Shown: positions 4,984 through 39,500, counted from the stretch's first letter. The stretch: DNA of 64,000 bases from Dysidea avara (GCF_963678975.1 NC_089278.1:6612531-6676530), one strand, 5' to 3'. The notes: generated by a model not told the origin, from the sequence alone. Numbers and translations: made by a program.

Positions 4984-5020
4984 CTGACAAGCAGAGGAGG
5001 TCAGTCACCCATAGTAATCC

Positions 5021-5754: not shown

Positions 5755-5775
5755 CCCCCCCCCCCCCCCCCCCCC
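5755..5775. repeat. Poly-C homopolymer (21 C)
   Basis: catg + 21 c + aagatactc, read directly. Confidence 0.95.
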
Positions 5776-7784: not shown

Positions 7785-7820
<36 letters not shown>

Positions 7821-9176: not shown

Positions 9177-9231
9177 GTGTGTGTGTGTGTGTGTGTGTGT
9201 GTCTGTGTGTGTGTCGGTGTGTGTGTGTGTT
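9177..9231. repeat. (GT)n microsatellite with interruptions (GTCT, GTCG)
   Basis: Direct reading at 9177-9231. Confidence 0.9.
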
Positions 9232-10080: not shown

Positions 10081-12298
10081 ATGTCACTACAAGTGCTGTG
10101 CATAGACTTGGTGCTTGGGTTAAAATACTTGAAGATTGCTGAGAGTATGTAAATGCATGAGACTTGTTGTATTCAATACATGAGGCTTTGTAGTATAGTG
10201 CAATATAGACTCCTTACACTGTCCACTACTAAGTTAAGGATTATTTTGTTACACAGTACACATGTAGGAGACCAATATCAACAGGATCCATCTTTCATGT
10301 AGAAAAGAAGAAACCAGTCAATACTGTGAGTAATGTATATACCGTCTAATTTTTATAAATTCCTTTTTGTTAGATAATTAATTTTGTACCGCAGCAAGAG
10401 GCATGGGTGGTGGAGCGCTTTGGACGTTACCTACGAACACTTAAGCCAGTAAAGGGATTGTTATAACTATATTAAGATTTTACTTTGTTCTCATAGGGCC
10501 TCAACTTTTTGCTTCCAGTAATTGACAATATCAAATATGTTCAGAATCTTAAAGAAGTAGCCATTGACATCCCCTCACAGTCAGCCATTACTGAAGGTAT
10601 GAGGAGTTCAGTAGGTGATGTTTCTAACTCATGTTGAGTAGATAATGTAACACTTCACTTGGACGGTGTGCTCTATATGAGAATATATGATCCATATGCT
10701 GTGAGGACACCCCACTGGTGGCTATGGTGTGATGTGATATATTGGTAGGCTTCATATGGAGTTGAGGATGCTGAGTTTGCTGTAGTTCAACTAGCACAGA
10801 CCACCATGAGGTCTGAACTAGGTGTGTATGTGTGTTGCGTATGTGTGTGACTAGTAACTATATAAATGCACCTGTAATCAGCTAGCTGCGTGTGCAAAGT
10901 TGCACTATTGTCTCTGTTCTACGATCATACATCAAATAATAGCTATTCAGAAGTCTGGCAACGTAGAATTTTTTACTATATTTAGATAATTTTTTTTATG
11001 TAGGGAAGATAAAATTAGATAGAGTGTTTCAAGAGAGAACAATATTGAATTTCTCCATTGTGGGTAAGTGTATGATGATAAATGTCATCCTCTTGGTGTT
11101 ATCCACGCTATCACACTGTCTAGAATCCATCAACAATGCAGCGGAGGCTTGGGGTGTAAAGTGTATGAGATATGAAATAAGTCAGTAAGAATAATAGTAC
11201 TAGCCTTAATTGTGTATCATTTATCCTTCCTAGAGGACATTCAGTTACCTACCAAAGTCAAGGAAGCAATGCAAATGCAGGTTAGTACCAATGATCAGAT
11301 GGGCTTATGAGATATCAACCTACCAGTGTTATAATGTAAAAATTTATGGTCCACTCCTCGCAAAATTGGGTGTTTCAGATCCAGCTGTCTCATAAGAAAA
11401 TGGAGGGATCTGAAGACATTCTACTTGCTATTGTTTGTGTAGGTAGAAGCAGAGCGAAAGAAGAGAGCTGTTGTATTAGAGTCTGAAGGAACTCGTGAGT
11501 CAGCCATCAACAAAGCTGAGGGGTACAAGCAAAGCAAGATTTTAGCATCAGAAGCTAAAAAAGTTGAACAAATCAACACAGCCAAAGGTTACTACATAAT
11601 ACAATGACACAACACTCATTTGCCTGCAGGTGCTGCTATTGCAACCATCGCTAAGGCTGAAGCACGTGCCAAAGCTCTCAGAGTAGTAGGAGAAGTAATT
11701 GGTGGAAAGGTTTGTATATATATAATATTTCCATGACTACCTAAAAAAAACTGTTGCTCTATGCAGAATGGCTCCCAGGCTGCCTCACTGACTGTAGCAG
11801 AACAGGTAAGGGGCAACACTATATGATGTATTATACAGTAGTATACTTCTGTTAGTATGTGGATGCATTCAGTAAACTAGCTAAGACCTCCAACACTTTA
11901 ATGTTGCCTGAGAATACAGGAAACATTGCATCAATGGTATCCCAGGTGAGTTCAGATAATGTTGCATCGTAAACTATTTTAAGCTATAGGCCATGGCCAT
12001 TTATGGTCACATGAGCAATAAGACATTGTCACATGAAGATCCACCTCCTGATGATGATGGTGGTGCAAAGATGTATGAATTGGGAGAGAAGGAGATTGAT
12101 GAAACATTGTCATCACTTATGCAAGAAGCAGAGGATGTGCTAACCACACCTGATGCTACGCAACAATTAAGTCAGCATGAAGAGAGCCCCGCCCTCCTCA
12201 CTGCAGAACCAGAGGAAAAGAGCAAAAGTAACGAACACTTCACACTAGCAAACTCACCTACGCGCTATCAAACCTACCGCAAGGATACAGAGGTGTAA
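10081..12298 (+). CDS. STOML2: Stomatin-like protein 2, mitochondrial (SPFH/band-7 family). Resolved exons: 10374-10448, 10497-10596, 10642-10700, 10749-10821, 11004-11063, 11124-11180, 11234-11280, 11443-11587, 11630-11709, 11768-11806, 11856-11945, 11990-12298 (stop TAA at 12296-12298). Tentative 5' exons: 10081-10144 (ATG) and 10285-10325.
   Basis: The spliced translation is collinear with human STOML2. Window 'IINFVPQQEAWVVERFGRYLRTLKP' aligns with human 'VVLFVPQQEAWVVERMGRFHRILEP'. 'GLNFLLPVIDNIKYVQNLKEVAIDIPSQSAITE' aligns with 'GLNILIPVLDRIRYVQSLKEIVINVPEQSAVT'. 'DNVTLHLDGVLYMRIYDPYA' + 'ASYGVEDAEFAVVQLAQTTMRSEL', 'GKIKLDRVFQERTILNFSIV', 'ESINNAAEAWGVKCMRYEI', 'KDIQLPTKVKEAMQMQ', 'VEAERKKRAVVLESEGTRESAINKAEGYKQSKILASEAKKVEQINTAK', 'GAAIATIAKAEARAKALRVVGEVIGGK', 'NGSQAASLTVAEQ', 'YVDAFSKLAKTSNTLMLPENTGNIASMVSQ' and 'AMAIYGHMSNK…' all match successive STOML2 segments. 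All introns are GT-AG. Phase bookkeeping is consistent: about 412 codons with the tentative 5' exons. Introns run 42-60 nt, apart from two of 182 and 162 nt. The 5' end (start codon and presequence) is uncertain. Confidence 0.85.
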
Positions 12299-13139
12299 TG
12301 TTGTATGCATTTTTGCAATTAATAATAGTACAGATCACAGCTATGTTATGACCGTTGAATTCCAGATCACTGATCGCTGAATCATTGCCTCCCTTGCAAT
12401 TTGGGTTTATGTTGCTGGCCTGACAGTTTCATGTTGGTGGATTGGGTGTTTAGTTTTATGGACCGGATCAGCTGGACCAAATCCTAATGACTGACCAGGA
12501 TAGCATGATATACTGAATGGGGTTTAGGCATTTCCTTTAATGCTGTATATTTATAAAGCATTGCTGTCATATTTCCTCCCTTGCTGTACCCATGGCAATT
12601 GACAATTAAAAATTTACTCTAATAGAGCAGTCACTGACCACTCTAATAGAACAGTTGCATTTTATATCTTGTAAGTAGCTACTTAATGTATAACCAAAGC
12701 ATATTTTAAGCACATTTAAGTACTATATACATACTTGTTCAAGTGTCTTTTAGGTATTGATTAATTTGGAAACCTGTCACCAAAATTCCTGGAGCTGCCA
12801 TGCATAGCTGTTGCCATAATATGGTACCACATTTTGCATTACTGACACGTAACTAGCTGTGTTACAGTGGCCTCAACCTAAAGATGCATATACTTTGATT
12901 TTTCCGCTATTTAAGAATCCAGACTCTTCTCGTCCTAAATTACAATGAATGGATTACACTGGAATGACTTTGGGTATCTAATTATAACCACAGTGTGCTG
13001 GACAATTATTAGAGAATATGGGCATGATATCCAAAATGTTAACTTATTTATAGTTTGACTCATAGTATTGTCATTGATTTCATGTCAGTTAAGTTGTGTT
13101 CATGAACTTTGATTTGAAAGTGCGTATGATCAAATAGGC

Positions 13140-13612
13140 AGTGTTGGGAGTAATGCACTACATTTGTAACGCGTTACGTAATATTATTACTTTTGTGGTA
13201 CCTAAGTAATCAAGTTACTTTACTTACAAATGTAACGCGTTACCTAAGTAATGTAGTTATTGTAACGGGTCTAATATTATTACTACAAGTAACGAAGTTA
13301 CTAATCCCGTTAGTAATCACTGAGTAACGCCTAGCCACAACAAAGTAATGAAGCCTACTGAATGAAGCTTATTCACCAGCTTCTTACTTATAACCAAGAT
13401 TTGCACATTGCCCAACAACGAAATCATGTCATGTGATAAGGTGGTAGTTTCACACGTGACAGCTTAAGGCTGTGGACACAAGGTAATATAATATGTAATA
13501 TTATTATAGTTACTTTATTTTATGAGTAATATGTAACTGTAACTAAATAGTTTAGTTGCAAGTAATATGTAACTAGTTACTTTGTAAAAGTAACTTTCCC
13601 AACACTGCAAAT
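13140..13612. mobile_element. MITE, about 470 bp, with terminal inverted repeats CAGTGTTGGGAGTAA… and …GTAACTTTCCCAACACTGC. The interior is rich in GTAACG/GTTAC palindromes. A second, diverged copy is at 28590-29308.
   Basis: The terminal inverted repeat was read directly at 13140-13160 versus 13590-13612. The interior has long internal self-complementarity (taacgcgttac, gtaacgggtc, gttactttacttacaaatgtaacgcgttacc). Confidence 0.75.
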
Positions 13613-16600
13613 AGGGATATCCCCTTATTCTCTACTTATAAATTACACAGGGTGACTGCAAATTCTAATAGAACGCACACCTAAAAACCACCTTTAAAAG
13701 CATCTTTCAACCCTCTGGTGGTTCTTTGCATTGAGTATAGGTTCACTAGTAAGTAGGGCTGAAACAATCGTAGTTTTTAGTATTTGAGAGTTAATGATTG
13801 AGTACTCGTGAATACTACAGTCATACCCATTTGACCTGTTTTGTACCAACCTTTAAACCATTTACAACTTTTTCAAGTAACAACAATGATACACACACTG
13901 TATTAAAGTACTGATGTTAGTGTTCCTGACAAAAAAAATTATGCCAATCAAACTCTACAGCCTTCATTGTGTCACTCCCTGATGACAAATACATCATGTG
14001 AGCTGGGTCATGTGATCTTAATGAGTACTCATCAAGTATTAGTATTTGTTTCAGTAAGCATCAAGTAAAATGAAACAGAAAAGTGGATTTCAGACAATAG
14101 ATTATGGAGGGGCACGTTCAGACATTTTGCCATTTGTTCAATATTATTTGTTCCACTCACGTACAGCAAAAGTTATCCACTTTTCACAATAAAAACTATA
14201 ATAGCCATGTTTACTGAGTCCTCCCCATGACGTATTTTCCAAGCAGAAACTTGCTCATCAAGTATTCTCTAATACAGTACACCAAAATTATTTTATCAGC
14301 CAAAATAAGTACTCATTGCAAATACTACTTGTAACAAAACACTATTGTATTGTTATATTGTGTACTGTGCAGGAATCATGTATGATTATAATGCACAGGT
14401 GTAATTATAAGTGTCCAAATCATTACAAAACTCAGTGTATGTGGGAGCGTTAACAATGTTCTGGGGTAGATTGTTCCATAGTTTAATCACTGAAGGGAAG
14501 AATGAAAATTTAAAACTGTTAGTTATCGTTTTAATTGCTTTCTGCATAAAGGTAGATCCAGAGTTTCAGCATAGATAATATACAGCCCCCATACTTTGAA
14601 TATATATATGCTTTGAGCCTCGCTTTAATTTGAGCTAATAGCTAAAATTAAATGTAAAGCTAATTCAAATTCAAATGTAGCTAAGCTACACTGTACAAAA
14701 TAAAGTGTGTCTGACAGACTGACACACCAAAAAATGTCACAATAGACACACTTTTGCACATGGTGTGTATATTGTAACATTTTTGGTGTGTCAGACCATA
14801 GTGTATACCTTATCATATTATGTAGATAATAAGGTAATACCATAGATAATATATACCTTACAGTATATATTATCTATGGTCAGACACACATCATTTTTTA
14901 CAGTGTAGCTAAGTGTGAATTATAGAGAAAATTATAGCCTACTCACTATGGCTGCAATATGCATGAGTTCCACAAAGTTGAGATTTAAGAGGTCTAGGTG
15001 AGTGCAACCTCCAGGAGCTGTAAGAAATTTAATTCTATTATGGCCTAAAGATGAAACCACATGTTATACTGTATCTATGTTGCAAAGAGCAATTGTGTAC
15101 TTCATGATAATGAGCCTTATATATAATGTTTTGTATGCAATTAGTGTATTGCATGTGCTTGTTTTGCTGCTCCTCTTCAATTTTTCAACCACTACAGAAA
15201 GAGATGTAATACATAGCTATGATCATCTCCGGTATATGTGCATTTCATTTCACAAGCTGTGGTGAATCACAGACCACAACCCAAGTATAGCAAGTTTGTA
15301 GTTACAGCTAAAATTTCCTACTACACATTTAACCAAAGGAACAGAATATAGCTATAGCTTTCAAGAAGAATTGATGTCTTATGATTCATGGTATATACAT
15401 ATTAAAAGTTTAACTTTAAACGATTGACATGCCAGCAGGCACAATGGTGAGATAGCAGTGTACAGGTCAAGATGAAGAGCCAGCTCACAAACTGGTCTTT
15501 TGTTCCTTATAGTTAATGATGGATGTTCTATTAGAGTAGTTGACTGTTTTATTAGAGTATTTCAATTTTACCCCTGAAAATATAAATTTGACCCCTGGGA
15601 TTAGCTCTTCTCTTCTCACTTCATGCTTATAAGATCCAATCGCACCTATTTACTGTAGCTTCTATACTATAACTTTCTAGCTATCAATAGATCTTTGGAG
15701 GTGAGAGTTCTTCAGCACCCCCTAAATCTGCTCTGTACATTTTTAATGGGAAAGCAGAAGTAGCTATACTTGTGGACTTTGTACTAACAGTGTTTTGATA
15801 AGCCTGTATACCTATATTCCTTTGAAGCTATAGGAAGCTTACAACAATGGTGTGAATTTGGCATCACTAATTAATGTCTGCATGCATGTAGTCCTTTTGG
15901 CAGAATCAAAAATTATGATGTGACATGTTCTAGTTTTGCCTCAAATTGTGGTCCAGGTGTTAATATGCTTTGTTTGATCTGTCAAAGTAGCTACTTTGAG
16001 TTTCACTGCTGAGTGTTAACTTGCTCCATCAACACTTTAATCATAAGCATGGATTTACTATAATAACCAGAAAGACTTGAAGCCCTCATTTTTGATAGAC
16101 CATACTGAAGTTAGATACTCTCCTCTTTTATTATTCACTCTTGACAGTATTAAATGATCTTCATGTTGTGTCCTCTTTGGTGTTTTTCTAAACATACCTT
16201 ACAGAAAGGAATGCCATATAGGCCTATGACACTGTTCACTTCATTGTTTACAATACTGAAATGACAAAAGTTTGGCATGACTAAAGTATGGCAAAGAATT
16301 AGGTGAATCAAAGGAAATTTGCCAAACTTTATATTCGCCATACAATTACCTATTGTATATTGTTCAACTTTAGCTGCACGGTAAATTTTCCAAACTTTCA
16401 TCTGCCAACCTGCTAATTCACCAAACTTGCCAAACTTTTGTCGTTTACATGACACACAAGGCAGAAGTGTAACTGCATGTACTAAGCAGCCAAACTTGAC
16501 ACTGATTTTTATTCAAAACTTCTGTTGCAATGCTCACTATCTCTGGTGGTGTTTATAAGGGACTGGCTGTAATTTGAGACAATCTAGTATGTCTCATGGT

Positions 16601-17796
16601 ATAATGGTTGCATATTTATGCCGTAAATGTACATCTCCTTTTTCCATTTGTGTTTCTTTACAGCGCACTATACATCTATAAAGCCATAGATATGTGCATC
16701 ATTGCATGCATGATGAGGTAATACATCATACTCTATGAAACCTGGACTGGCTTACTCTATAATACCTCTACCTCTTACTCTGGAAACTGAAAACCTTCTC
16801 TTAACTCTTTCATAATGAGCTGGCTACCCTGCTGTCTAAGCGTTTCACTGTTGAGGTCATCAATAATGTGTATATATCTGTGGCTCTATAGATGGATATA
16901 TACTCCTGTGGACCTCGTGACTGCTGAGTCTATAGGACGTCCACTGTATGTGATCCCCCTCCAGTAGGTCTTTATAGGTATCCTTTTCTGTTGGCATACA
17001 TATATCGATCCCTTTTTAGCTAACAGATTTAAACAAATTTCTTCTAGCTTTTCATAGAGATGTGTGCCGGGGTGGAAGGGAGTGCCATATTAGGGCTAGT
17101 TAATTATATAATAAAAATATAATTTTAAAAAACATAATGAGGCAATCAAATGGTAAAGCCTTGTGAGAATCCCACTCTATTGCTAAGTCATTAATTGGAT
17201 CATAGACCAGAAAATTCAATTACAGAGGAACCAACAAGCATTATTGCATGTCTGTACCAATACTTTCTGAAGTGATCAATTTATAACCATCAGTTACAGT
17301 TTATCCACCTGTCATGGTGTTACTAGTATCTTAAAACATATCATCTGAAATATCTGATTAAATTAGTCATGACATGGCAATTATGTACACAAAGCACCAC
17401 TAATAATGCAATACTGCTCTTCCGTAAAACGATATTAAAATCTGAATGTGGCATAACAACAGTATAATCCATTATGGATTTATAAAAATTTAAAAGGGAG
17501 AAATAAGGATTGCTGAAAAAAACAAGAATACCAGAAGGGATTGCTGGGGTGGCAATGTAAACCACAAATTCCTATTTCGCCTTGACAAAGCTTTTAGAGA
17601 CATTGAGTTGGGTTTTGTGCTTTATATTACCACCCCAGCAATCCCTTTTTGTTTTGTTGCTTTTTTCAGCTTTCCCCTTAATTTATAATACTGTATATAG
17701 GACATGCGTACCCAGTGGTAGTGCATATGCATGCATTCAGTGACATACGTACCATGTATATCCTTTACATTACACTGTCACACTGTTGTACCACTT

Positions 17797-18720
17797 TACA
17801 AGTGATATAACAATGTCACCAAAACCTACTTCACTTCATGATGAACCTGCAATAAAATAAATGTGTTCTTGTTTCTCCTTCATGCGGTCAACAGGTCCTG
17901 ACTAATATTGAGGTCAGTGGATGTAAGTCATTGCACGACACACACACACTCACTCACTCACTCACTCACTCATAGGTTATTGATATAGCATATCTGTAAG
18001 ATGCATGCATATATGAAAATTTTCATCTTTGTATTTACAATGTGGTCATTGTCATTACCGTACTTGTTATCCTATGCATCAGTATGGTATACACAGTCTA
18101 TCAGTTATTCACTCCCTGTGAACATGGTCCAATTGAGCCTACACACACATTCTATCTCATATAACTACAGTATACATTAAACCAATACATACTGAGTTTC
18201 TCTCAAAAGCACTTTTTTTATCATCACCCTTGAGGGGATGATAATCCTCATCACCTAGCACCCTCAAGGGGAGGATATAATCCTAATGTTTATACTCACT
18301 GTAAGCTATGGAGTTTCTGATAGCATCAAAATGCTCTACAGAACAAAACCATTTAATCTGCAGCTGAGATAGAGGAAAAACTGACTGTTTTTTGGATCAC
18401 CTTATAAAATCAATTTTAAAAGTTCACAAAGGTCAATCTGGGATGGCCAAAATGACATTAGCAATTACAAATAAATTTGCCAAGTTTCATGGTATTATTT
18501 AAAAGTGCGTGCATGCACTTAAGTTTCAAAGGTCTTAGCTATTGTATGTTAAAAATAGTGCTAAGAGAAATAACATTTCAGCTAACCAGATGATTAACAA
18601 CGACAGTAAAGGTGTCAAGAGTAGAGATGTGCAGTAAGTTTGACTCCATTGCAGGTTCAGGAAGACTGTACACTTTTATGGTTTCTACAGAGGAATTTAT
18701 GTGGAAACTTTGATTAGAGT
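17797..18720. repeat. Segmental duplication: about 920 bp, roughly 95% identical to 51521-52400, same orientation. Contains a (CA)n/(CTCA)n microsatellite at 17941-17973 and a hairpin CACCCTTGAGGGG…CCCTCAAGGGG.
   Basis: A base-by-base comparison of the two intervals shows long identical runs. Examples: caatgtcaccaaaacctacttcacttca…, tatgaaaattttcatctttgtatttacaatgtggtcatt…, ctgcagctgagatagaggaaaaactgactg…. Confidence 0.85.
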
Positions 18721-19334: not shown

Positions 19335-19965
19335 CCAGAACATTAGACATATTATACTAGCGCCATGGCAACTATGCATCCTCACGTGACTAAATAATTG
19401 CGCTCGTTAAATCACTGCACGTGAAGAATGCATATTGGATGAACCTAGATTTTGAGCATATGTTATAGTGCGCTTGAAGGCGTGGAGTATATTAAATACT
19501 TTAGGTTTAAGGAAGAAATTCCATCCCTCCTGGAGGAAGACTGAGTGTGGCCCCGACTAGACATTGGGTGACCTGCAGTTCGAATCTTGGATTTTTTTCC
19601 TTACTTTGGCCCCTTTTCTGTTACACCTTTTCAGTCAGTGAGTAAGTTAAGTCATTAGGTCTAAGTCCCTGAAATTGGGTTAGGTAATCCTAAGGCTGCA
19701 GCACATGTTACTGTCAGACCTTCAGTGCTGGTCACTGTAAAGTGCTAATAATAAAAATAATAAAATATTAGAAAACAAAGTGGAGTATATGAGATTTATT
19801 ACCCATCCAAAACAGCCTAAATAGAGTCTCTCCACGCCTCCAAGCACAATATAACATATGCTTAAAATTGAATCGCTATGCGTTCTTCACGTGCAGTGAT
19901 TTAACGAGTGCGATCATTTAGTCACGTGAGGACGCATAGTTGCCATGGCGCTAGTATTATCGTAA
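19335..19965. mobile_element. Foldback-type element with about 145-bp inverted arms (19351-19495 and 19800-19945). The arms contain CACGTGA motifs. The loop carries a nested SINE-like insert.
   Basis: ctagcgccatggcaactatgcatcctcacgtgactaaat…gcgcttgaaggcgtggagtatatt versus its near-perfect reverse complement …gcatagttgccatggcgctag. A solo arm plus the same 3' flank recurs at 36790-37230. Confidence 0.75.
19500..19790 (+). mobile_element. SINE-like element: tRNA-like B-box (AGTTCGAATCT), conserved body, (TAA)n/(AATAAA)-rich tail. Partial copies at 28283-28462 (+) and 29101-29150 (-).
   Basis: The interval …gggtgacctgcagttcgaatcttgg…ccttttctgttacacctttcagtcag…cagaccttcagtgctggtcactgtaaagtgctaataataaaaataataaaat is shared nearly identically with 28295-28460. 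Confidence 0.65.
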
Positions 19966-27291: not shown

Positions 27292-28465
27292 TAATAAATG
27301 GTGTACATTTAATAGGAAACATTTACGTCACATTGGTACATTCCCACTACATGAAATATTTTACTTTAACCAGTCATCATGGCTAAGAAGGGTAAGATTT
27401 ATCTAATTTAATTTTCAAGTAGCAATTTAGTGGTACAAGGGAAACCACCTTTAGGCCATGGCCTTAATAGGCAGGTGGCTGCTTTTTACAGGTGGAGTAC
27501 TGTACAAATTTCTCACTCGGGTAATCTATTTGGTATTTAAAATGGATGGGTGGCTGCTAAAGAAGACAAGTTCCACTATCTATGGCTATAAATTTTGTCA
27601 TACTTGTGTAGCATCTCAACCCAGTGATCAGCAGTACCATGCACAGAGCTCTCTAACCCTTCAATATATCTACCAGTAAGTTAGCAGCAGCAGCACATTA
27701 AGTGGTGTGTCTAGCATGCGTATAGTCTGCAGGTGATGTTATAATGGTGAGGAGAGCAGCATTGACCGTAACATGCCTGATGTGTCCATAGTGTACTTAC
27801 TGCACTTGGAATGTACAGGCAAACTGATTAACACTCATGACTGGATGAAGGTTATTGTCTAACGTTAAGTGCAATTCTTATATATTTCTTGTAGGCATTT
27901 GTCTCCGTCATGTCTTCTGATAGTAGTGAAATGGATGATGAGTCACTACAGTATCCTTACTATTCTACATTCTCCTCTCCTTTGCTGTGACTGACCTTGA
28001 CAAGTTGCAGTGAACGGTTTCACTCTGCAGTGGCACAGCTTCAATTCATGGGGTTTGTTAGACCAGCCAGAAGGAAGAAAGACCACATGCAAAGACTCAC
28101 CTGGTATAACTGATCACAGAAGAACCTCATTGTGTTTATGTAATGGCTAAATGAACTTTATCTATGTTGACCTGTGGGTAGATTCTATGCATGTGATGTT
28201 TGTTTAATTGGGCGTGTACTTTCATTGTTTGTTTGTGGTATTTAAAGAGGTGTCTTTCTAGCCAATGATATCATAATTGGCTAGAATTGGAGGGATTTTT
28301 CCCCTTAGTTTGGCCCCTTTTCTGTTACACCTTTCAGTCACTAGGTCAAGTCATTAGGTCTAAGTCCTTGAAATTAGGTTAGGTAATCCTAAGGCTGCAG
28401 CACATGTTGCTGTCAGACCTTCAGTGCTGGTCACTGTAAAGTGCTAATAATAATAATAAATGTTG

Positions 28466-28860
28466 TTTATCCTTGTTAGTATAGCTGGGGCCCTGCCCAC
28501 TATAAAACCTCCACTCAGTGGAGGTTTTATAGTGGACAGGGCCCCAGTTGTACTAACAAGTGTAGTTTGGTATTATACAGCAAGTCCAGTGTTGGGGGTA
28601 ACGCGTTACATAATAATTATTGCTTTTGTGGTAACGAAGTAATATAACAAAATATGCTGTAAAAACAGGTAATATAGCTGGGGCCCTGCCCACTATAAAA
28701 CCTCCACTCAGTGGAGGTTTTATAGTGGGCAGGGCCCCAGCTGTACTAACAAGCGTAGTTTGGTATTATACAGCAACCAGTGTTGGGGGTAACGCGTTAC
28801 ATAATAATTATTACTTTTGTGGTAACGAAGTAATATAACAAAATATGCTGTAAGAACAGG
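28466..28860. repeat. Tandem duplication, 2 copies of about 195 bp, each containing a perfect hairpin GCTGGGGCCCTGCCCACTATAAAACCTCCACTCAGTGGAGGTTTTATAGTGGACAGGGCCCCAG
   Basis: 28466-28660 is nearly identical to 28664-28858. The hairpin was read directly. Confidence 0.85.
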
Positions 28861-29516
28861 TAATGTAACTCAAGTTACTTTACTTGCAATGTAACGTGTT
28901 ACCTAAGTATTGAAGTTACTGTAACGAGTCTAATATTACATAATATTCTTTAAGTAACAAAGTTACTGATTTAGTTAGTAATCCATTGAGTAACGCTTAG
29001 CCACTACAAAGTAACGAAGCCTACTGAATGAAACTTATTCACCAGCTTCTTGCTTATAACGAAGATTTGCACATTGTCCAACAACGCAATAATGTCACGT
29101 GATTATTATTATTATTATTAGCACTTTACAGTGACCAGCACTGAAGGTCTATGATAAAGTGGTAGTTTCACACGTGACAGCTTAAAGCTATGTAATATTA
29201 TTATAGTTACTTTATTATATGGGTAATATGTAACTGTAACTAAATAGTTCAGTTGTAAATAATATGTAACGAGCTACATTTTAAAAGTAACTGTCCCAAC
29301 ACTGACAGCAACTGTTGAGGAGAGTGTAGTGTGTACAGGATATCTGGTTATCAGGCTTGTATGAAACATCAAATTCCTGCTATAAGACTATCACCAAGAG
29401 GTAACAATAGTAGGGATGCCTTGCCATCACAATAGGCAGTCAACAAGGAAGCTGCCAAGAAATCTAAACCTAGTAAGAAACATGTAGCCAGGCAAGAAGA
29501 GAATAGTGATGTTGAT

Positions 29517-30263
29517 TATTATTATTATTATTTATTACAGGTAATTTATAAGGCTAAACAGCCTGTTACACCTGATCAACAGGTAAAAAAAGTACAAGTA
29601 GACTAATTACATACATTTATACATAGTGTTAGATGAATATTGGTCAATCAATTTCTTAAAATCATCAACTGATGCTGCACATGCTACTTCTTGGGGTAAA
29701 TTATTCCATGGTTCAACAACTCTTCTTGTAAAAAAATATTTCCTGGCATCTGTTCTTGAAAAATATTTAAATAGCTTAAATGTATGACCTCTGGTATGGG
29801 TAATGGGTGAAAAAGTAAAAAAATCAGAATGGTCTATATCATACTTATCATGTAGCATATTGTAGACAGCAATCATGTCACCTCTATAACGTCTATAATG
29901 TAATGATGGCAAGTGAAGTACTTTCAATCGTTCCTCGTAGTCAAGATTTCTTATAGATTTGATCATTCTAGTTGCTTTCCATTGGATTTTTTCTAATTTT
30001 TGGATGTCTGTTTTATAGTGAGGTCCCCAAACCAAGTTACCATATTCTAAAATAGGACGTACTATTGATTTGTATAAACATGTAAATGAATCTACAGAAA
30101 TATCCAAAAAGGTCTGTTTAATAAGGCCAAGAAGTCTATTAGCCTTATTAACCACTGCCGAACACTGACTATGAAACTTGAGATTGCAATCAATCAACAC
30201 CCCCAAATCCTTTTCCTCATTTACCTTAACAATATCCATCCCATCCATCAATGTGCCCTCTGT
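29517..30263 (-). mobile_element. 5'-truncated non-LTR retrotransposon (LINE) 3' fragment with a (TAA)n tail, inserted into copy 1 of the orphan gene. The ORF 29607-30251 encodes the reverse-transcriptase C-terminal / post-RT region.
   Basis: ORF '…LYKSIVRPILEYGNLVWGPHYKTDIQKLEKIQWKATRMI…' is typical of the CR1/RTE/Jockey-type RT C-terminus. The minus-strand 3' end reads …cctgtaataaataataataataataatc. The insertion is absent from the paralogous site at 32760. Confidence 0.8.
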
Positions 30264-31399
30264 GGTAAAAGAACTGAAGTTTGATCTTGATAAGCCATTG
30301 AGGCATGCTTTAGAGCAAGTGTTTAATCATCAAGGTACAGTGGTGCTGACATTTCAAGGTTCATCATATGATCAGGTTGTGTAAAATGAGCTGTTGTACT
30401 TCTATTATGCTTGTACCAATCAACAGGTATCAGAATATGCTGATAATATCATATCTAGCTATAAACCACCAAGAGTAACTAGATCGATGAAATGCCATTT
30501 CACTGATTGTACAGTATGTTTTCTTTTCTTTTTTTAAGTAACCATTAATGTGTTATAACAGCTAGACACAACTGACTCAGTTGAGGAAATCAAAGTAGAG
30601 GTTGTGGAGGTGCTGATTTCAAACATTCCATCTTATGTACGTTGATCATTTGTTGGATGTGTGCAAGTTTTCGTCTACTCAATAGAAAAGAAAACTTAAA
30701 GAAGAATTTGGAAAACGTCAATTGATTCCTAAAATGACTGTGCATGGTCTCTCTGAAGACAACACTACCACCACCTCGCGTGTAGTAGGTGCAGTTACTG
30801 GTGGTGGACAGCAGGTTCTGACAATTGACACACAAGGTAGACCAGTGTTTTTCAAGGATTGTGAGCCAGCTGTCCCTCTTGATATACGAATAATATATAT
30901 CACTAAGATTTGGGTTTTCCAGCCACCAAAGAAACCTGACACTACACTAGTGTGTTGGTCAAACCAATGTATAGAGCTACAAGCAGTCCCAAATGTTTCT
31001 AAGAAATTAAATATTTTCAAACTGTAGGTGAAAGTTGCCACCGTATGTGTGTAGTGTGTATGTACATTGTTGCGTGCGTGTGTGGGGTGGGGGGTGGTTC
31101 AGTGCTTCTAAGTGCTACGCAGTCAGTGCCTCTCTTTGGCAAACTCCAGGCAACAGTATTTGTACTGGCCAAACTGACTATTAGAAGCTTACGAGTTTAG
31201 AGTTTGTGCACTGATGATGTCACTTAGTTCATACCAATCTCGTGCCCCTGCTAAGGTTTTGCAAGCCTTTCAGGGTAACCAACTTAGCTATGCACTTAGA
31301 GAGCAAAAACAGCTGTTTTCATAGCTAATACCTGGCATGTTCGCTCAATGGTGGATGTTACTGGTCCCATTGAAATTGCTGCCCAAAGACCTGGCAATC

Positions 31400-31401
<2 letters not shown>

Positions 31402-31446
<45 letters not shown>

Positions 31447-31490
31447 CATGCATGCGCGTGTGTGTGTTTATGTGTGTGCATGTGCGTGTA
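31402..31490. repeat. (GT)n microsatellite followed by GT/GC-rich degenerate repeats
   Basis: Direct reading. Confidence 0.9.
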
Positions 31491-33044
31491 CCTCTAAAGT
31501 CCTGTAGGTCAAAATGGTTTTTCCCCCTTGATGAAGTTTCGTTGTCAAAGTACAATTGTAGATACTACAATACATGCTCATCAACTAAAATTATTATTAA
31601 GCTAGTAGCATTATTAACAGCAGAAATTTGTATAAACTTTTCATCATTCCATTTCATACACTTCTGCGTTTCTTAGAGTGGAATATCAACACTCATCTCG
31701 CCAATCACAGAGTATTATTTGGATCAATTTGAGTACACTTCTGCCAATTAGATATGAAGTAATCGAGAACCAATTTTATATGCAAACTATCCAGAGACAT
31801 CACTACAACCAGCAACACCGATCACTGGTGGTGGTGATGATCCACCAACTGATGATGACTTTAAACCATCAACTGATGACCCTGATGATGGAGTAAGTTG
31901 ATGTGTTTTAAAATAAAATAAAAATTGTGCGGAACAGTCCACGTGCACTATCAGATCCATTCTACTACATTCCGAAGATCATTGACAAGGATGATTTTAA
32001 TTATCATGTACATGGAGGTGGGCATGGGGCAATAATATATCCTGTACTAGGTGGCTCAACCAATAATAGGATTAGCAAGGGACTGAAAATAGACAGTTCT
32101 GGTAACAGACTCGCCATACTTGATACCTCTGTTCTAAAGTTTGATATAAACATTTATCCAATTGATGACGATGTGGGCATTCAGTGATGATGAAGGTCCA
32201 GCACAAGAACTAGTTGTTTTAAAACACTTTTACACATTTTGCTAGTGTATATTGCGTGCGTGTGTGTGTGTGCGTGTGTGTATTTATAACCACTACATGC
32301 ATGTGATCTCATTGATTGTTGGTCCTCCCTCCCCTCAGGTAGTAGTGATGGTCACTGTTTAGTCTACTTCTCGGTTCTAAGCTTGTAACTGTCTGGTCAG
32401 TTGTACATGTCTTATGTTTATATAGTATATGTAATAGCTAATATAGACTTTAACCAAGTTGTGCATGTGTTTAATTGGGCATGTTCTTTCATTGTTTGTT
32501 TGTGGTATTTAAAGAGGCGTCATTCTAGCCAATGATATCATAATAAATATTGTTTATCCTTATTAGTATAGCTGGGCCTTGCTCACTATAAAACCTCCAC
32601 TGTAGTTTTGTTCATTCTTTGTCTAACTGTTGAGGAGAGTAGTGTTCAGGATGTCTGGTTATCAGGCTTGTATGAGACATGAAATTCCTGCTATAAGACT
32701 ATCATGTCAACAAGCAGTGAGTAATAAGAGTGTAGCCAGACAAGAAGAGGATGGTGATAATGTGCCTCCTGTGGCAGAAAAACTGCAGCTTGATCTTGAT
32801 AAGCCATTGAGACATGCTTTAGAGCAAGTGTTTAATCATCAAGGTACAGTGGTGCTGACATTTCAAGGTTCATCATATGATCAGGTTGTGTAAAATGAGC
32901 TGTTGTACTTCTATTATGCTTGTACCAATCATCAGGTATCAGAATATGCTGAAAATATCAGATCTCATTTTAAAAGCTATAAACCACCAAGGGAATGCCA
33001 TTTCACTACAGTATGTTTTTAAATTGTATATAATATGTTAGAGT

Positions 33045-33665
33045 TAAAGCACCGCCGCGCGTGTGTACGGAAAATACAGTACGAGGGGGTGCATGTGTCG
33101 AGAGGCTTGCTGTATTTGCCTCGAGACACCCCCCGAGTACTGTATTTTTCGTACACACAAGCAAGGCGGTGCTTTAAGTGTTATATTGTACTTCCTGGTC
33201 GCGTCTGGCTTGGAGCGATTTTCTCTAGTACTCAAACCGCTGCGATTTTCGGTGATAAGGATATCAGTAAGTGTTTAACCAATCTATTTCTAGTCGTAGA
33301 ACGACCTAATAGGATTAGTTTGGCTAGTTTTATCGATTTACAATGTCACGCACGTGATCAATCGTGCTGTCTTAGTGGAGCCGTGTTTAAAAAGCTTCGT
33401 GATCAGACGATCAGTAAGTGTTTATACAATCTATTCCTAGCCGTAGAACGAACTCTTAGGATTAGTTTGGCTGGTTTTAGCGATTTACAGTGTTGTTTAC
33501 GTAACATTCCACAAATAAATTCTCCGCATAACTGTACTGTGTTTGCCCAAGTGTGCTGCATTTGCCCAATTAAGCGCATAACTGTACTGTATGACTTACA
33601 GTACAGTTATGCAGCTGATTAGTACTGTATGGACAATACGATACGCGGCATCGCTTTGATCCTCC
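33045..33665. repeat. Composite repeat. Left: a CpG-rich palindromic terminus (33045-33185). Middle: two tandem copies of about 150 bp (33262-33400 and 33410-33510). Right: a terminus with ATAACTGTACTGT repeats and a hairpin (33525-33650).
   Basis: aaagcaccgccgcgcgtgtgtacggaaaatacagtac … gtactgtatttttcgtacacacaagcaaggcggtgcttt is a near-palindrome. The tandem units aaggatatcagtaagtgtttaaccaatctatttctagtcgtagaacgacc… and agacgatcagtaagtgtttatacaatctattcctagccgtagaacgaac… are similar to each other. The 195-aa ORF at 33035-33622 lies wholly inside this repeat and is not treated as a gene. Confidence 0.7.
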
Positions 33666-33869
33666 CACACAAAGTACAATATATAAGTACAATATTTTAT
33701 AGTTATATTCTACACCCCAGTAGATGAAAACGATTATAGATAGTAAGTTATAGTGAAACAGCACCTCCTGGAGATGGAAATCAATAGAAATTCTTGGTGG
33801 ATCAGACGTTTTACACTTTTAACGATGCCACGCCCACATAGTCGCGATTAGTTGTTTTTTTTCCAGTGT

Positions 33870-36184
33870 CATGATTATTATTATTATTATTACTAGGACC
33901 GCGTCACATACAACCAAGTACATACACCAACGTGACAGCCCTCCTGGTGAGGCTATTAGGTGGTGAAGGCATGATCCCCTCAATATGTCACAGTGGTGAC
34001 AGATAAAACACAATAGTGGCATCGTAACTAAAGGCCACCAGTAGCTAAGTGCCAGTACATCATTGTTGTGGTAATGGCACAGTGATGTGTACACAGTATA
34101 TGTAATTATGTATACAAAATGTACAGGAGAGAACTATGCATTATTGTATGCAGCAATACATTATAGGCAATATCAAATTATTAGCCAATATACAGTAAAG
34201 TATCAACATCAACTAGAACTAAATAAGGTTCATCAGTGGTGAAGCAATGGCACAGTAACGGGTGACACACTATAATTATGCATACACAACTTGCAGGAGA
34301 TAGCTACACAATACCGTAGGAGTATGCAAGCCAGATGAATCAGATAAAAAAAAAGACAGCCAAGCCAGCCAGAACCTAGTAGCTAGCTAGCAAAGCCAGG
34401 TGAAGGCAAAAAAGATTAAGCATGTATTGAATTGCCTGACACCAACACAAAGGACGTTCGCCATGCCAGCTGCACAAGACAAGATTGTTTACATGTATTG
34501 TAAAGAGAGTGGCATGTGTTTTAATGTATTCTTGTATTGTTAATTAACTTTTTATGTGACTGGCAGCTGGCATGGAGACTTGAGACGTTACAAACATAAA
34601 AACTTACTTGTAATCTTCTTGTTTACGTGTATAAAGTGGCCTTTCCCTCTCCTGAGGTCACTTCACGGACATTCGCTAACCTTCTCCTTCGCCCAATCTG
34701 TAAATAAGCAAGGGTGTGGTGCTGGGCGTTATATAGAATTACACGTATGGTCAAGTCATCAGCACGAATGGGCGCAACGATTATACGTTTGTGCCTTCGT
34801 TCACAGGCGAATCGATCCCCGGTTAGTTTACGTCTCTAGGCCTCGTAGTTTTCTCAAACATTAATTATTAATTATTTATTTATTTATGACGTAATTTTAA
34901 CCGCGTTTCGTATTTTTCTTAGTACTTGGTTGTATAATTATTTTTTTTTTTACAAATTAATGACACAAGAAGTACATAATAAACAAAAACAAATTATCTC
35001 AGTTACATATGGGCCTCAGCGACCTGCACAGCAATCGGTGCCTCAGCAATGGGACAGCACAAACTGGACCTGGCACCACGAATGCACATAATTGCAGACC
35101 TCAACAAAGAGAAGCTCAATTTACATCTCAGCCATCCCATCACTATTCCATAGGAAAGACTGTGCTTTGCACTCAAAAGGTTGGCCAATCTCTTATAAAA
35201 CTGAGTAGCAGCATCACCCATTCCACCAGTAGTAGTAAAAATTAAGGGAGTAAATGAGGCATTCTCTACTTCATGAACCCGTTGTTGGTATTCACGTCTC
35301 TTTTCCTTGTCATGACGTCGGTATGCAGAGTGTAGGGGTTGATTTGAGGGTGCACTAGGGTTAAAAATTCTGACATCAAAGTATGACCTCTCAAATCGTC
35401 TTCCCCAAAAACCATTAGCTGCAATGTCAAGCCTTGCGTTATCATCACGATTAGCTGTTTTGTATTGAAGGGTCTCACCAGAAAGAGGCTGAAGGTGGGG
35501 TTCAGTGACAACATTGTTACAGACCTCGGAAAGTAAATTGGTAGTTAGATCACGCACTTCATTATGTCTCAGAGAAGGAAACCCGCCCTTTGGGCAAGAC
35601 AGAGCATGTTCTATGGTAAAAGAGTGACCACAGGCACAGGAAGTAGGGCAGGCAGATGGTAGCCAATGATAGCGAAGCGCAATTGCATCACGAAAAGCAG
35701 TTTTATGAAACACAAAATTATGCGACTTCAATGGAAGACAAGAGAGCCAATTCGATGCACCCTCCTCCTGAGCCAACATGACTGAGGAACGCATGCTAGG
35801 AGGAAGTTCATCGAACAAATGATTGGCAGATTGAAGTTGCTCTTGATGGCTCCTAGAGTGAAACTTGGATCGCAACTGAACCTGTGCATCAAGACAGTCA
35901 CCTAGTTGATGTACCTGAGAGATAATCAAGCCAACGAGACCAGCATTTACTTCTACAGAGCAGGAACGCTGCTGTGACACAACAATCGAAGGATCAAAAA
36001 CACCAAGGCCTCCTAGCCGCACAGGCAAGGCAAATAGCTTTCTCTCAACATCACCAGGGACAGTTCGACCCAATAGACTAGGAAGGAAAACAGATTTAAC
36101 AAAATGCTCAAGAGGAAGGAAAAGGTCTGTAGAACAAGAAGAAACACGAAAAAATAGTTCCATCGGAAAGAGAGACCATGACAA
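33870..36184 (-). mobile_element. 5'-truncated LINE-like retroelement. ORF 35003-36184 (393 aa) carries a CCHC zinc-finger-like motif (CACGHSFTIEHALSCPKGG…RHNEVRD) and a restriction-endonuclease-like PD-(D/E)xK region (ARLDIAANGFW…SYFDVRIFNP). A long 3' region holds an internal tandem repeat of about 190 bp (34040-34330) and ends in a (TAA)n tail at 33872-33895.
   Basis: Motifs were read in the translation. The minus-strand terminus …gtatgtacttggttgtatgtgacgcggtcctagtaataataataataatcatg shares TACTTGGTT-TGTGAC with the SINE 3' end at 20003-20022. No RT domain lies upstream; a MITE at 36311-36758 abuts the ORF start. Whether 33870-35002 is one continuous 3'UTR or includes a separate SINE insertion cannot be settled from the sequence. 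Confidence 0.6.
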
Positions 36185-36310
36185 AAAGTCGCGATTAGTG
36201 AGTTATCCACGAAGGAGACAAGAGTTCATCGAAACTTGTTCCAGTTCCTGAGGTGAATAATTATTGGTTGATTTAGGCGCTTGTTATTAGAGACTTGTTT
36301 ACCCTTTAGG

Positions 36311-36758
36311 CCCCTATTTGGTGATTATTAGTTTCTCATCCAGCCTTTCTAATTATTATGATGCGGGCGGGAGGGTATTACCATTATACCATTATTTTAT
36401 AATATTAACACACTGATGTACAGACCTTGTCCAAATTGTCTTTCTTTCTTATTACAAACATTTCCTTCACCAGCTGATTCTACTTTTCGTGATCGCCAAC
36501 TGTTTTTCGACAGTAAACTGAAAGCCTGCTTTGATGAAGTCGATAGAACACGATTGCAACTGGCACTGCAGCAATTTGCTAAGGAAACAATAGTTCTCCT
36601 GGCGATATATAGCGCATTGTAGCGTTCACCAACAAAAAATTGGAACAGTTTGGTATCACGTGTTCTTCTGAGCATGCACAGAGTAAAATAATGGCTTACC
36701 ATGCGGTAGCTTAAGAAGGATGCGGGCGGTGGATGAGAAACTAATAATCACCAAATAG
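36311..36758. mobile_element. MITE with about 33-bp terminal inverted repeats (GGCCCCTATTTGGTGATTATTAGTTTCTCATCC); related termini at 57960-58030
   Basis: 36311-36343 is the reverse complement of 36726-36758. The subterminal GATGCGGGCGG(G/T)… motifs are also inverted. Confidence 0.8.
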
Positions 36759-36789
36759 GGGCCTTAGTTAGACTCTATTTAGGCCGTTT

Positions 36790-37230
36790 TGGGTGGGTAA
36801 TAAATCTCATATACTCCACCTTGTTTTCTAATATACTCCACGCCTTCAGGCACAATATAACATATACTCAAAATCTAGGTTTATCCAATCGCTATGCATT
36901 GTTCACGTGCAGTGATTTGGCGAGCATGATTATTTTGTCACGTGAAGCCGCATAGTTGCCATGGCACTAGTATTATCGTAAGAAAACCAGCTGGTTTTTC
37001 CGAGCCTACAGCAGAAACAGCCGTGGATGAGGTAAGTAATCTGAGTGTAATGTGAAATAGAGTCTAAAGCAGTTATACGGGCACAATGTGGAGTCTATGA
37101 AATTTATAAACCCTCAGGCCCTTAGTAGCGCCCTCGCTTCGCTCATGCCCTACAGCCCGGGCCTTCGGGTTTATAAATTTCATAGACTCCACATTGTGCC
37201 CGTATAACTATTATATAAGGATTTCGCGGA
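36790..37230. repeat. Solo arm of the 19.3 kb foldback element plus a shared flank (homologous to 19800-19965 and 20147-20300). The flank contains a foldback GTTATACGGGCACAATGTGGAGTCTATGAAATTTATAAACCC…GGGTTTATAAATTTCATAGACTCCACATTGTGCCCGTATAAC.
   Basis: Direct comparison: cgctatgc.ttcttcacgtgcagtgattt…gcatagttgccatggc.ctagtattatcgtaagaaaaccagc, then ccgagcctacagcagaaacagccgtggatgaggtaagtaatctgagtgtaatgtgaaatagagtctaaagcag in both loci. Confidence 0.75.
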
Positions 37231-39284
37231 ATGTGTGAAGTTACACCATATATGGTAAGCGTAGCCACAAAGCGTGGTATATTAATTATTATGCCACAGT
37301 TTGCCGTGGTATATACCACAGCACGGCGCTTTTGATCTCAACCACAGGTGTGGTATATATATATACATATATATCATCATGCAGTATACAGAAGTACTGT
37401 ATAGTACGTATCATGGAGGTCCCCCCCCCCCCAAAAAAAAAAACAGCTTAGTTTTCTTTAAAACAGATATTCCAGGAGGGATGGTTGTCTGGAGAGCATT
37501 ATTAATGTGGTGTGCATTAGTTCAGTAGTCATTTAAAATAAGGAAAATTTTATATTTGAGTACAAAAAGTGAGGAAACATGGGAGGTCATCTACACTTAT
37601 ATATAGCTACTAGTGAACATTTAAAATAATGATCCCTACTCCAGTCATGGTGAAGTAAGAATTAAATGTCTACTAGTATAGCTGCAGGCGTAGATAACCC
37701 CCCTTGTTTCTTTTCTATGATCAGTACAGCTATGCTCAAATATAAAATTTCTATATTTTTCCTATGTTGATGTTAACTCTATTGAGGAAATCAAGGTGGA
37801 AGTTGTAGAGGCACTGATTTCAAATATTCCATCTTTCTGATGTTTATATTGTTGGATGTGTACGTACATGTTTTAGTTATTTTACACATAGTGGACAAAA
37901 ACAGAACATGATGATTTTGATCAGTGGAAAAAAGAAATTAATGAAGAATTTGTAATCGCTCATTTGGGGTCTCCCTTGATTCATGAAGTCTATCTGACGA
38001 CAACACTCACAAGTACAGGTCTGGGAAATCAAATTCCCTGTATTGGTAGCCAGCAGATTCTGACAGTTGACATAAAAGGTGGACCAGTGTTTTTCAAGGA
38101 TTATGATCCATCTGTTCCTCTTGATAGTAAGAATATTACGTAAAAAATAATATTACTAATGTTTGGGTTTTCCAGCCAACAAAGAAACCTGGCACAACAG
38201 TAGTGTGATGGTTATCTATAGTCACTAACTGTTATTTCTCAGAGTCTAACTATGGACCTCTAAGGTCCTGTAGGCAAAGTAGCTAAATCAAAATGGCTTT
38301 GCCTTTTTTCCTTTAATAAAGTTCTGTTGCCTGGTACAACAGACAATACATACTCTTATTACTATACTAGCAGTAGCAGTAGTAGTGATAGGAGAGCAAC
38401 TTGTGTAAACCATTCATTGTTCCATTACAGAAGCTTCTTTGTTTCTTAAAGTGGAATATCAACCCCCCTCCGAATCTTCACCACAGAAAATCATTTGGAT
38501 CAGTTTGAGTACACTTAAGCCAATTAGATATAAAAAAAGTGAAAACCGATTTTATGCAGACTTTTCACAGACATCATTACAACCAGCAACACCAATCATT
38601 GGTGGTGGTGGTGATCCACCAACTGATGATGACTCTGAACCATCAGCTCAGACCTCAACTGACGACTCTAATCATAAAGTAAGTTAACGTGTTTTTTTTT
38701 TAAGTTTAAAATGAAAATGTGTGCAGAATCCATTCTGGTACATTCCGAAAATCATTGATAAGGATGAGTTTAATTATCATGTAAATGGAGGGGAGCGTGA
38801 GACAATAATATACCCTGTACTAGGTGGTTCAACCGATAAAAGGATTAGCAAGGGAGATGGTGACAAACCTCCTGCCATACTTCATACCTCTGGTCTGAAG
38901 TTTGACATAAACAATCATGATGACACAAACATTTAAGGATCAAACAAAAAAAATCTGAAGCTCAAACATATAAACTGGTAGTTTTTGTGACACTTTTACA
39001 CACTTTGCTAGTACCTGTGTAGCCATTGTAAACAATATTATAAAAACTTGTGTGTGTTTACAACCACTACATGAAGTCTCATTGATGGCTCTCCCCTGGA
39101 TCCTCCACTGACACCTGGTAGTAGTGATGTGGTCACTGTTATGTCTGCTTCCCTGCTTGTAACTGTCTGATCAATTGTCTAGCTTGACTTAATTCCTCAT
39201 CCAATGAAGATACCTGATGATGTCATCATTAATAATATAGCTAAGACTTATGATTGGACAAATAATTAACACACCATTGGTATT

Positions 39285-39500
39285 ATGGTGTGTGTTGTGT
39301 GTGTGTTGTTGTGTGTGTGTTGTGTGTGTGTGTGTGTGTGTGTGAGTGAGTGAGTGAGTGAGTGAGTGAGTGAGTGAGTGAGTGAGTGAGTGAGTGAGTG
39401 AGTGAGTGAGTGAGTGAGTGAGTGAGTGAGTGAGTGAGTGAGTGAGTGAGTGAGTGAGTGAGTGAGTGAGTGAGTGAAATGAGTGAGAGAGAGAGAGAGG
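39285..39500. repeat. (GT)n then a long (GTGA)n microsatellite of about 35 units, then (GA)n
   Basis: Direct reading. It lies immediately downstream (3') of the terminal exon of the minus-strand coiled-coil gene. Confidence 0.95.

Follow-up and report, generated by a model that had tools for sequence, protein, structure and literature searches.

Does a tandemly duplicated gene of the demosponge Dysidea avara use two different reading frames for one and the same exon, or has one of its copies simply died? The question is raised by a locus in a 64,000-nucleotide (nt) stretch of the D. avara genome (GCF_963678975.1 NC_089278.1:6612531-6676530), hereafter called the window, to which all window coordinates refer. 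The existence of the RefSeq assembly GCF_963678975.1 has been confirmed by a 2026 genome paper (PMC12909245). The window has a eukaryotic character, as seen in its GC content of ~39%, its microsatellites and nested transposable elements and its introns of ~50 nt. An earlier note on this DNA had described two homologous units with complementary lesions, in which one exon, labelled d, is translated in a different frame in each copy. Self-BLAST indeed recovers two colinear units, at 28201-32404 (copy 1, C1) and 32468-39178 (copy 2, C2), and a tblastn search of the window revealed no third copy of the family. The identity between C1 and C2 falls into two levels, with 89-95% in a 5' region that had been named 'region X' and 70-80% in the exons labelled a, b, d and e and in the 3' untranslated region (3'UTR). 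We consider it likely that the locus is a tandem pair of a taxonomically restricted, fast-evolving gene, of which copy 2 is the apparently intact gene and copy 1 its unprocessed pseudogene. In the following, C1' and C2' denote a second pair of copies in a locus called L001, and L004 and L003 are two JGI metagenome contigs.

An apparently intact gene and its damaged neighbour

The exon-intron structure of the family is best read from C1', which serves as the template. Exon 1, with the start codon, is separated by a 51-nt intron from exon 2, after which come the exons a, b, d and e; the exons are numbered e1, e2, e3 (exon a), e4 (exon b), e6 (exon d) and e7 (exon e). All introns of C1' are of the GT-AG type and 45-51 nt long, with one exception of 453 nt. 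Region X holds the two 5' exons together with the start codon and the 51-nt intron, which had been overlooked. When copy 2 is spliced at the five coding exons given in Table 1, its translation is exactly that of the RefSeq protein XP_065910651.1 (333 amino acids, aa). Likewise, the translation of C1' is exactly XP_065912857.1 (257 aa), and both RefSeq entries are named 'uncharacterized protein'. The spliced open reading frame (ORF) of copy 2 is uninterrupted over 1,002 nt and all of its splice sites (8/8) are canonical GT-AG sites; copy 2 and C1' are ~18% divergent. The structure adopted here is that of RefSeq, which places the acceptor of exon b 33 nt and that of exon d 21 nt upstream of those first modelled. 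A first, seven-exon gene model with a 27-nt microexon and the downstream b and d acceptors was replaced, as the RefSeq structure differs from it. A candidate cassette microexon between exons b and d can be seen at window 30923-30949 and 38176-38202, L001 9263-9289 and L004 1966-1989. It is 27 nt long (24 in L004), has AG..GT flanks, would be in frame if included, lies outside the RefSeq models and is 86-88% identical between the copy types, with a TGG>TGA change in copy 1.

The lesions that had been ascribed to copy 2 do exist. Its exon a has no acceptor and contains an in-frame TGA, and both lesions are common to C2'. The RefSeq model skips this exon, and since exon a is 75 nt long and of phase 0-0, skipping preserves the frame. 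TEs (transposable elements) had also been reported, as 4.7 kb between region X and exon a. The block is present, but it measures 4,314 nt and is intronic, and it merely lengthens intron 2, which is 4.9 kb after the insertions. With an intronic TE block and an exon a whose skipping leaves the frame unchanged, copy 2 is not a damaged copy. The idea of complementary lesions cannot be upheld: copy 2 has an uninterrupted ORF, and about nine disabling changes are found in copy 1 alone. Copy 2 and C1' are presumably functional. The gene in copy 2 is already annotated as XP_065910651.1, and the importance of the locus goes little further than its annotation.

Copy 1 has kept the introns and the promoter-like region of its parent, and in every exon and intron it is colinear with copy 2 and C1'. 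Compared with C1', C2, C2' and L004, it alone has lost the start codon (ATG>ATA), which all four others keep, and it alone carries a TAG at 29433 and a 746-nt antisense LINE (long interspersed nuclear element) in exon 1. The splitting of the 5' region by a LINE 3' fragment had been recognised correctly, and the element has RVT_1-bearing homologs. Also confined to copy 1 are three splice-site mutations, namely the loss of the exon b donor (GTAAGA to ATACGA), as had been noticed before, and changes in the acceptors of exon d (CAG to CAT) and exon e (CAG to CGG); the sites disabled in copy 1 are canonical in C1', C2 and L004. Moreover, ~1 kb of insertions resembling short interspersed nuclear elements (SINEs) and miniature inverted-repeat transposable elements (MITEs), together with a palindromic rearrangement, separates the promoter-like sequence from exon 1. 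No RefSeq protein clusters with the ORF of copy 1 exon e (a cluster of 1). Copy 1 is presumably not expressed as protein, and it should be flagged as an unprocessed pseudogene in the annotation.

Table 1 Copies, exons and insertions at the locus, in window coordinates
Feature	Position	Strand	Remarks
Copy 1 (C1), unprocessed pseudogene (likely), 2.5 kb native + ~1.7 kb insertions	28190..32410	+	colinear with copy 2 and C1'
Copy 1 promoter-like 5' sequence	28239..28266	+	TATTTAAA 28239-28246, CCAAT 28262-28266; putative promoter role
SINE-like insertion, (TAA)n tail, copy 1 5' region	28278..28449	+	missing from L001; second copy 19589-19760
Nested repeat/MITE-like complex with palindromic duplication of native 5' sequence	28516..29304	.	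missing from L001
Copy 1 exon 1, 5' part	29340..29509	+	start ATA 29340-29342; in-frame TAG 29433-29435
5'-truncated LINE, 3' fragment of reverse transcriptase ORF, (TAA)n tail, in copy 1 exon 1	29510..30255	-	746 nt; empty site in L001
Copy 1 exon 1 3' part (30256-30375), intron 1 (51 nt), exon 2 (30427-30513)	30256..30513	+	in 5' tract of putative gene conversion
Copy 1 exon 3 (exon a), splice sites intact	30562..30636	+	
Copy 1 exon 4 (exon b)	30686..30889	+	+4/-1 compensated frameshift; donor destroyed, ATACGA 30884-30889
Copy 1 exon d	31655..31892	+	RefSeq-type acceptor CAG>CAT (31655-31657); TA insertion; GTAAGT donor unchanged
Copy 1 exon e	31930..32187	+	acceptor CAG>CGG (31930-31932); new AG 31936-31937; TGA 32185-32187; ORF is P0002
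Copy 2 (C2), gene for XP_065910651.1 with promoter-like 5' region and 3'UTR	32457..39180	+	colinearity, RefSeq match
Copy 2 coding exon 1, ATG at 32651	32651..32884	+	exact translation match to XP_065910651.1
Copy 2 coding exon 2	32936..33010	+	exact translation match
Nested TE block, copy 2 intron 2, 4,314 nt	33039..37352	.	missing from L001
Copy 2 exon 3 remnant (exon a), outside RefSeq mRNA	37764..37841	+	acceptor and donor lost, in-frame TGA
Copy 2 coding exon 3 (exon b + 33 nt at 5' end)	37892..38126	+	exact translation match
Copy 2 coding exon 4 (exon d + 21 nt at 5' end), ancestral frame	38431..38678	+	translation match; frame as in L004, L003
Copy 2 coding exon 5 (exon e), stop TAA 38934-38936	38727..38936	+	exact translation match

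Inverted arms, relatives and selection

A protein search with exons d and e yielded no more than two ORF fragments, which lie on the same 576-kb ENA contig. One of them is exon e of copy 1 (P0002) and the other lies in locus L001, which, in record coordinates, is situated directly past the 3' end of the window in inverted orientation. L001 (span 1-18379) is colinear with window 20461-44981 at 86-94% identity. The inverted arms are at least 24.5 kb long each and surround a unique spacer of ~21 kb containing Coq4 and Miro, so that the second two-gene unit, C1'/C2', is inverted and lies ~21 kb past the window arm. Coq4 and Miro are ordinary host genes of the window, as are ORC3 and a DUF547 gene, the latter two of which are located within the duplicated arm. 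The four insertions listed in Table 1 have no counterpart in L001; they are recent insertions with empty sites in the other arm.

Two arms of this kind could also arise if the assembly had mis-joined the other haplotype as L001. In that case C1/C1' and C2/C2' would be allelic pairs, with working copies segregating as presence/absence variants. The core exons of ORC3 and DUF547 are 98-99% identical and open in both arms and their introns differ by 7-12%, which resembles two functional alleles, and the same reads may underlie the ENA contig and the RefSeq assembly. However, the arms are inverted around the unique spacer with Coq4 and Miro, and the colinearity ends at window 44981 / L001 18379 and is not continued into the flanks. 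Moreover, XP_065910651.1 (arm A, C2) and XP_065912857.1 (arm B, C1') are both annotated on one 39.5-Mb RefSeq scaffold. For these reasons, a true inverted segmental duplication is the more probable reading, and a mis-joined haplotype is rather unlikely. The verdict on the original observation is unaffected if the second pair consists of alleles instead of paralogs.

Relatives of the family are few. An exhaustive HMMER search with the exon e profile against 1.84e9 representatives uncovered, beyond D. avara itself, nothing except the contigs L004 and L003, both of which have syntenic flanks. L004 carries an uninterrupted 344-aa, 7-exon ortholog of the C1 type. L003 (2684-3028; JGI 3300017830, Ga0189854_1004199) carries a more divergent homolog at the position of copy 2, in which one ORF (P0006) in the copy 2 frame unites exon d with exon e; the intron is lost and there is no acidic linker. 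The tandem duplication appears to predate the split from the genomes represented by L004 and L003. Two further candidates from the HMMER search were rejected: P0004, a bacterial Ig-like repeat protein, was judged spurious, as was P0005, an ORF of tandem 25-aa repeats. On contig L005 (3001-4059; ENA ERZ25070167), a 352-aa ORF is made up of eight tandem 25-aa repeats (KDDFGVHVGGFLTTLLYPSRSKIW) and weakly matches the exon e motif DKDDFNYHVHGG..IIYP; it was taken for a chance match or a repeat-derived ORF.

The statement that the protein belongs to no recognisable family has held, as has the presence of the peptides then quoted. No Pfam family was detected at E<=10, and an earlier exon-level Pfam scan was also empty. 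A profile search of the PDB yielded matches at chance level only (E >= 0.17), and a word search of 5.8e9 proteins with a two-protein full-length alignment returned nothing, not even self fragments. AlphaFold gave no usable model, with a predicted local distance difference test (pLDDT) score of 39.7 for exon e and 34.5 for full-length XP_065910651.1, the latter from a 6-sequence alignment. The product of XP_065910651.1 is a 37-kDa acidic and hydrophilic protein with an isoelectric point of 5.3, in which no hydrophobic segment fit for a signal peptide or a membrane span was found; it is probably soluble and intracellular. As far as these searches reach, the family is restricted to D. avara and the two metagenome contigs with syntenic flanks. 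Homology of the gene ORFs to a TE protein or TE domain, which the earlier note had named as a sign against a host gene, was seen in none of the Pfam, word and HMMER searches, and by these searches the family is not TE-derived.

How strongly the family is constrained was assessed with dN/dS, the ratio of nonsynonymous to synonymous substitution rates, by the method of Nei and Gojobori (NG86) among the four D. avara copies C1, C2, C1' and C2'. The reading frame is strongly conserved. In the retained exons of C1' and C2, 14/14 indels are multiples of 3; in introns and 3'UTR the count is 6/19 (Fisher p = 4.7e-5). Constraint is also visible against the metagenome ortholog, as dN/dS is 0.54 between L004 and C1' (Z = 4.0, p = 3e-5) and 0.73 between L004 and C2 (p = 0.026). 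By exon among the D. avara copies, dN/dS is 0.21 in exon a (23 codons), bearing out the synonymous excess that had been noticed there, about 0.5 in exon e and above 2 in exon b. The indels of C2' relative to C2 are 2, 1, -5, -20, 2 and -3, thus frameshifting, and C2' has a nonsense codon as well, which shows it to be decaying. Judged by these sequence comparisons, the family is a genuine but fast-evolving protein-coding family.

Several observations weigh against reading copy 2 as an intact gene beside a plain pseudogene. Among the D. avara copies, dN/dS is about 1 overall (0.80-1.22). On every polarised recent branch the synonymous:nonsynonymous counts are near neutral (including 7:28 for C1' and 3:10 for C2), so that no recent constraint on the amino acids of copy 2 and C1' can be detected. 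A relative-rate test gave no rate excess in the pseudogenes and did not separate them from the intact copies, and C1 against C1' gives a dN/dS of 0.97, with similar values for the intact copies. C1' has a 1-nt homopolymer frameshift in exon 1, where an A8 run lies at about L001 8602-8609, and its RefSeq protein begins in exon 2. Furthermore, the clusters of XP_065910651.1 and XP_065912857.1 contain no transcript-derived protein. Finally, copy 1 harbours two pairs of compensating frameshifts (+4/-1 within exon b, +2/-5 spanning exons d and e), which is more than expected of a freshly dead gene.

Most of these points would also fit a family that is dying or dead throughout D. avara, with copy 2 and C1' as its least damaged members and the RefSeq proteins as ab initio models without function. 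The near-neutral ratios of every within-genome pair and of the recent branches, the frameshift in C1', the exon lost from copy 2, the lack of transcript-derived cluster members and the lack of a confident fold all agree with it. However, copy 2 has kept its full ORF and eight canonical splice sites despite the divergence from C1', against which the 14 indels are in frame, and the pseudogenes C1 and C2' have gained frameshifts and splice-site losses over a shorter time. The constraint against L004 is significant, too. We therefore hold a dead family to be improbable. A dN/dS of about 1 without a conserved frame had been named beforehand as telling against a gene; the ratio between the copies is indeed about 1, but the frame is conserved in relatives.

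The reading frame of exon d

The supposed frame switch had been explained by three compensating changes, all of which have to be corrected. The indel in exon d is not a 1-nt change but a 2-nt TA insertion at about 31778-31781. The exon d donor is not shifted by 2 nt, since the GTAAGT donors of copies 1 and 2 align exactly and the phase alone differs. What had been taken for a 20-nt insertion at the exon e acceptor of copy 1 is a 21-nt ancestral in-frame coding segment at the start of exon e (N/S-IPHALS; NIPHALS in C1' and SIPHALS in L004), which is present in copy 1, C1' and L004 and has been deleted in frame in the copy 2 lineage. The old exon e acceptor of copy 1 now reads cGG instead of cAG, and 5 nt downstream of it a new AG is present. 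As +2 in exon d and -5 at the exon e acceptor sum up to -3, an in-frame path into copy 1 exon e exists, and the peptide read in the switched frame is MQTIQRHHYNQQHRSL....

The claim of an in-frame, stop-free path through exon d of copy 1 is therefore correct, but its use is unsupported. The +1 frame of exon d is free of stops in 6/6 homologous sequences (C1, C2, C1', C2', L004 and L003), and the linker region encoded there is rich in Asp, Gly, Pro and Thr. Simulated +2 insertions leave exon d open at 106/231 positions in C1' and at 136/243 in C2, i.e. at 46-56%. Because no homolog has a stop in the alternative frame, the fact that this frame is open says nothing about its use. The ancestral frame of exon d (...TSLQPATPI.GGGD.PP...) is that of copy 2; it is used by C1', C2, L004, L003 and both RefSeq proteins, and only the two frameshifted copies, copy 1 and C2', depart from it. 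The alternative frame is neither conserved nor used in these relatives. In addition, copy 1 is otherwise not intact, its start codon, exon 1 and three splice sites being destroyed. As far as sequence can tell, the frame-switched exon is a frameshift, with no evidence that the switched frame is used in coding. More generally, frame switching cannot be deduced from the mere lack of stops in an alternative frame of a low-complexity linker. The observation as a whole survives in its duplication and most of its lesions, with three details corrected, and its functional interpretation is unsupported.

C2' shares the TATA state of copy 1 at the frameshift site. The 5' half of its exon d (L001 12180-12385 compared with 9743-9957) is 96-97% identical to C1' and 91-93% identical to C2, which suggests that local gene conversion may have occurred in exon d within arm B.

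The compensated frameshift pairs are the sole unusual residue of the locus. They suggest that selection went on preserving the frame of copy 1 for some time before the gene died. It has been considered that copy 1 survived for a period, or still survives, as a truncated expressed gene with the linker in the +1 frame, the acceptor shift having been fixed by selection to rescue the conserved C-terminal domain. This is very improbable; if it were true, copy 1, which also has the +4/-1 pair, would document frameshifts that were compensated repeatedly in a young sponge gene. The original proposal goes further still, with complementary lesions in the two copies and copy 1 as a working truncated gene that starts at an ATG at the exon b/d junction, reads ~35-38 codons in the +1 frame and returns to frame in exon e by an acceptor shift, and it is hardly credible: its path does keep the frame arithmetically and meets no stop, it requires three changes in copy 1 (the TA insertion, AG>GG at the old acceptor and a T>G that creates the AG 5 nt downstream) and a second compensated pair occurs in exon b, but against it stand the lost start codon, the TAG and the LINE in exon 1, the insertions downstream of the promoter-like sequence, the lost exon b donor and RefSeq-type exon d acceptor, ATGs in exons 2 and 4 upstream of the proposed start, the universally open and hence uninformative alternative frame, the other frame in the intact homologs and both RefSeq models, a dN/dS of 0.84-0.86 between C1 and C1' in exons d and e, and the missing RefSeq protein from copy 1.

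Probable birth and death, probable gene conversion and neighbouring elements

The 5' ~600 nt of the unit, which take in the promoter-like TATTTAAA, exon 1 with the following 51-nt intron 1 and the beginning of exon 2, are 94-98% identical among the four copies, and outside this tract the identity among them is 60-87%. The tract covers window 28190-28277 plus 29340-30452 and 32457-32961, and L001 8218-8790 and 10481-10977. In copy 2, the TATTTAAA element is located at 32506-32513. The promoter-like stretch itself is 94-98% identical in the four copies (alignment columns 60-120), or 82-95% in a differently bounded slice. In the tract, the four copies are nearly identical to each other but only 79-82% identical to L004, which points to homogenisation by gene conversion, with the pseudogene copy 1 taking part, and not to constraint. 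The whole window gave 0 hits in Rfam, so the near-identical block of e1 and intron 1 is not a known RNA.

The history of the locus may be pictured as follows. After the duplication, copy 1 would have lost its start codon and gained the nonsense codon and the LINE in exon 1, and it would further have acquired the 5' insertions, the three splice-site mutations and the 2-nt frameshift in exon d. The 'frame-switched' reading would arise since the +1 frame of the Asp/Gly/Pro/Thr-rich linker has no stop in any homolog, and the open path into exon e would rest on the mutated acceptor, which chanced to leave an AG in a compatible phase. In arm B, the fates are reversed, C1' being nearly intact and C2' decayed. 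Gene conversion would meanwhile keep the 5' ~600 nt of the four copies nearly identical. All of this would amount to ordinary birth-and-death evolution with local gene conversion.

Parts of this picture are known from other systems. The RefSeq proteins XP_065910651.1 and XP_065912857.1 are the same as copy 2 and C1', respectively, residue for residue. However, the records give no function, copy 1 is seemingly uncovered as far as the clusters show, and neither the pseudogene nor the inverted second pair nor the gene-conversion tract belongs to them. Like an unprocessed pseudogene beside its parent, and like members of birth-and-death families, copy 1 retains introns and a promoter-like region and carries start loss, nonsense, frameshift and splice losses as well as TEs, and as in such families different copies have been lost in the two arms. 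It differs from a typical unprocessed pseudogene in its two compensated frameshift pairs, and the surviving copies lack measurable recent amino-acid constraint. With sponge orphan genes, the family shares the absence of a Pfam or PDB relative, low AlphaFold confidence and fast evolution, but it is not confined to a single species, as intact or partial orthologs occur in two other sampled genomes (L004 and L003). The homogenised 5' ~600 nt, including intron 1, recall the concerted evolution of tandem paralogs; here, however, homogenisation is limited to the 5' end and, in arm B, locally to exon d, and a pseudogene also takes part. Sponge-restricted and of no known fold, the family illustrates birth-and-death evolution with 5' gene conversion cleanly and on a small scale, and could serve studies of orphan-gene turnover in Porifera.

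The elements inserted into the two copies belong to several classes. The LINE ORF in copy 1 has 69 homologs, of which the longer ones contain the PF00078 RVT_1 domain, and near-identical copies occur elsewhere in the assembly. The SINE-like element is 172 nt long; its two copies in the window are 91% identical, and its last 45 nt are found inverted at 29106-29150. Beside this element (28472-28560), a 44-nt perfect-looking palindrome has formed from duplicated native 5' sequence of copy 1. Within the TE block in intron 2 of copy 2, a 393-aa ORF at 35003-36184 on the minus strand had no match in Pfam or PDB (PDB searches of two TE ORFs were both empty); it probably represents the C-terminal portion of a retroelement protein. 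Moreover, the large intron of copy 1 contains a (TG)n microsatellite (31400-31480) that is much longer in C1', and a (GAGT)n/(TG)n array (39283-39500) is located just 3' of copy 2.

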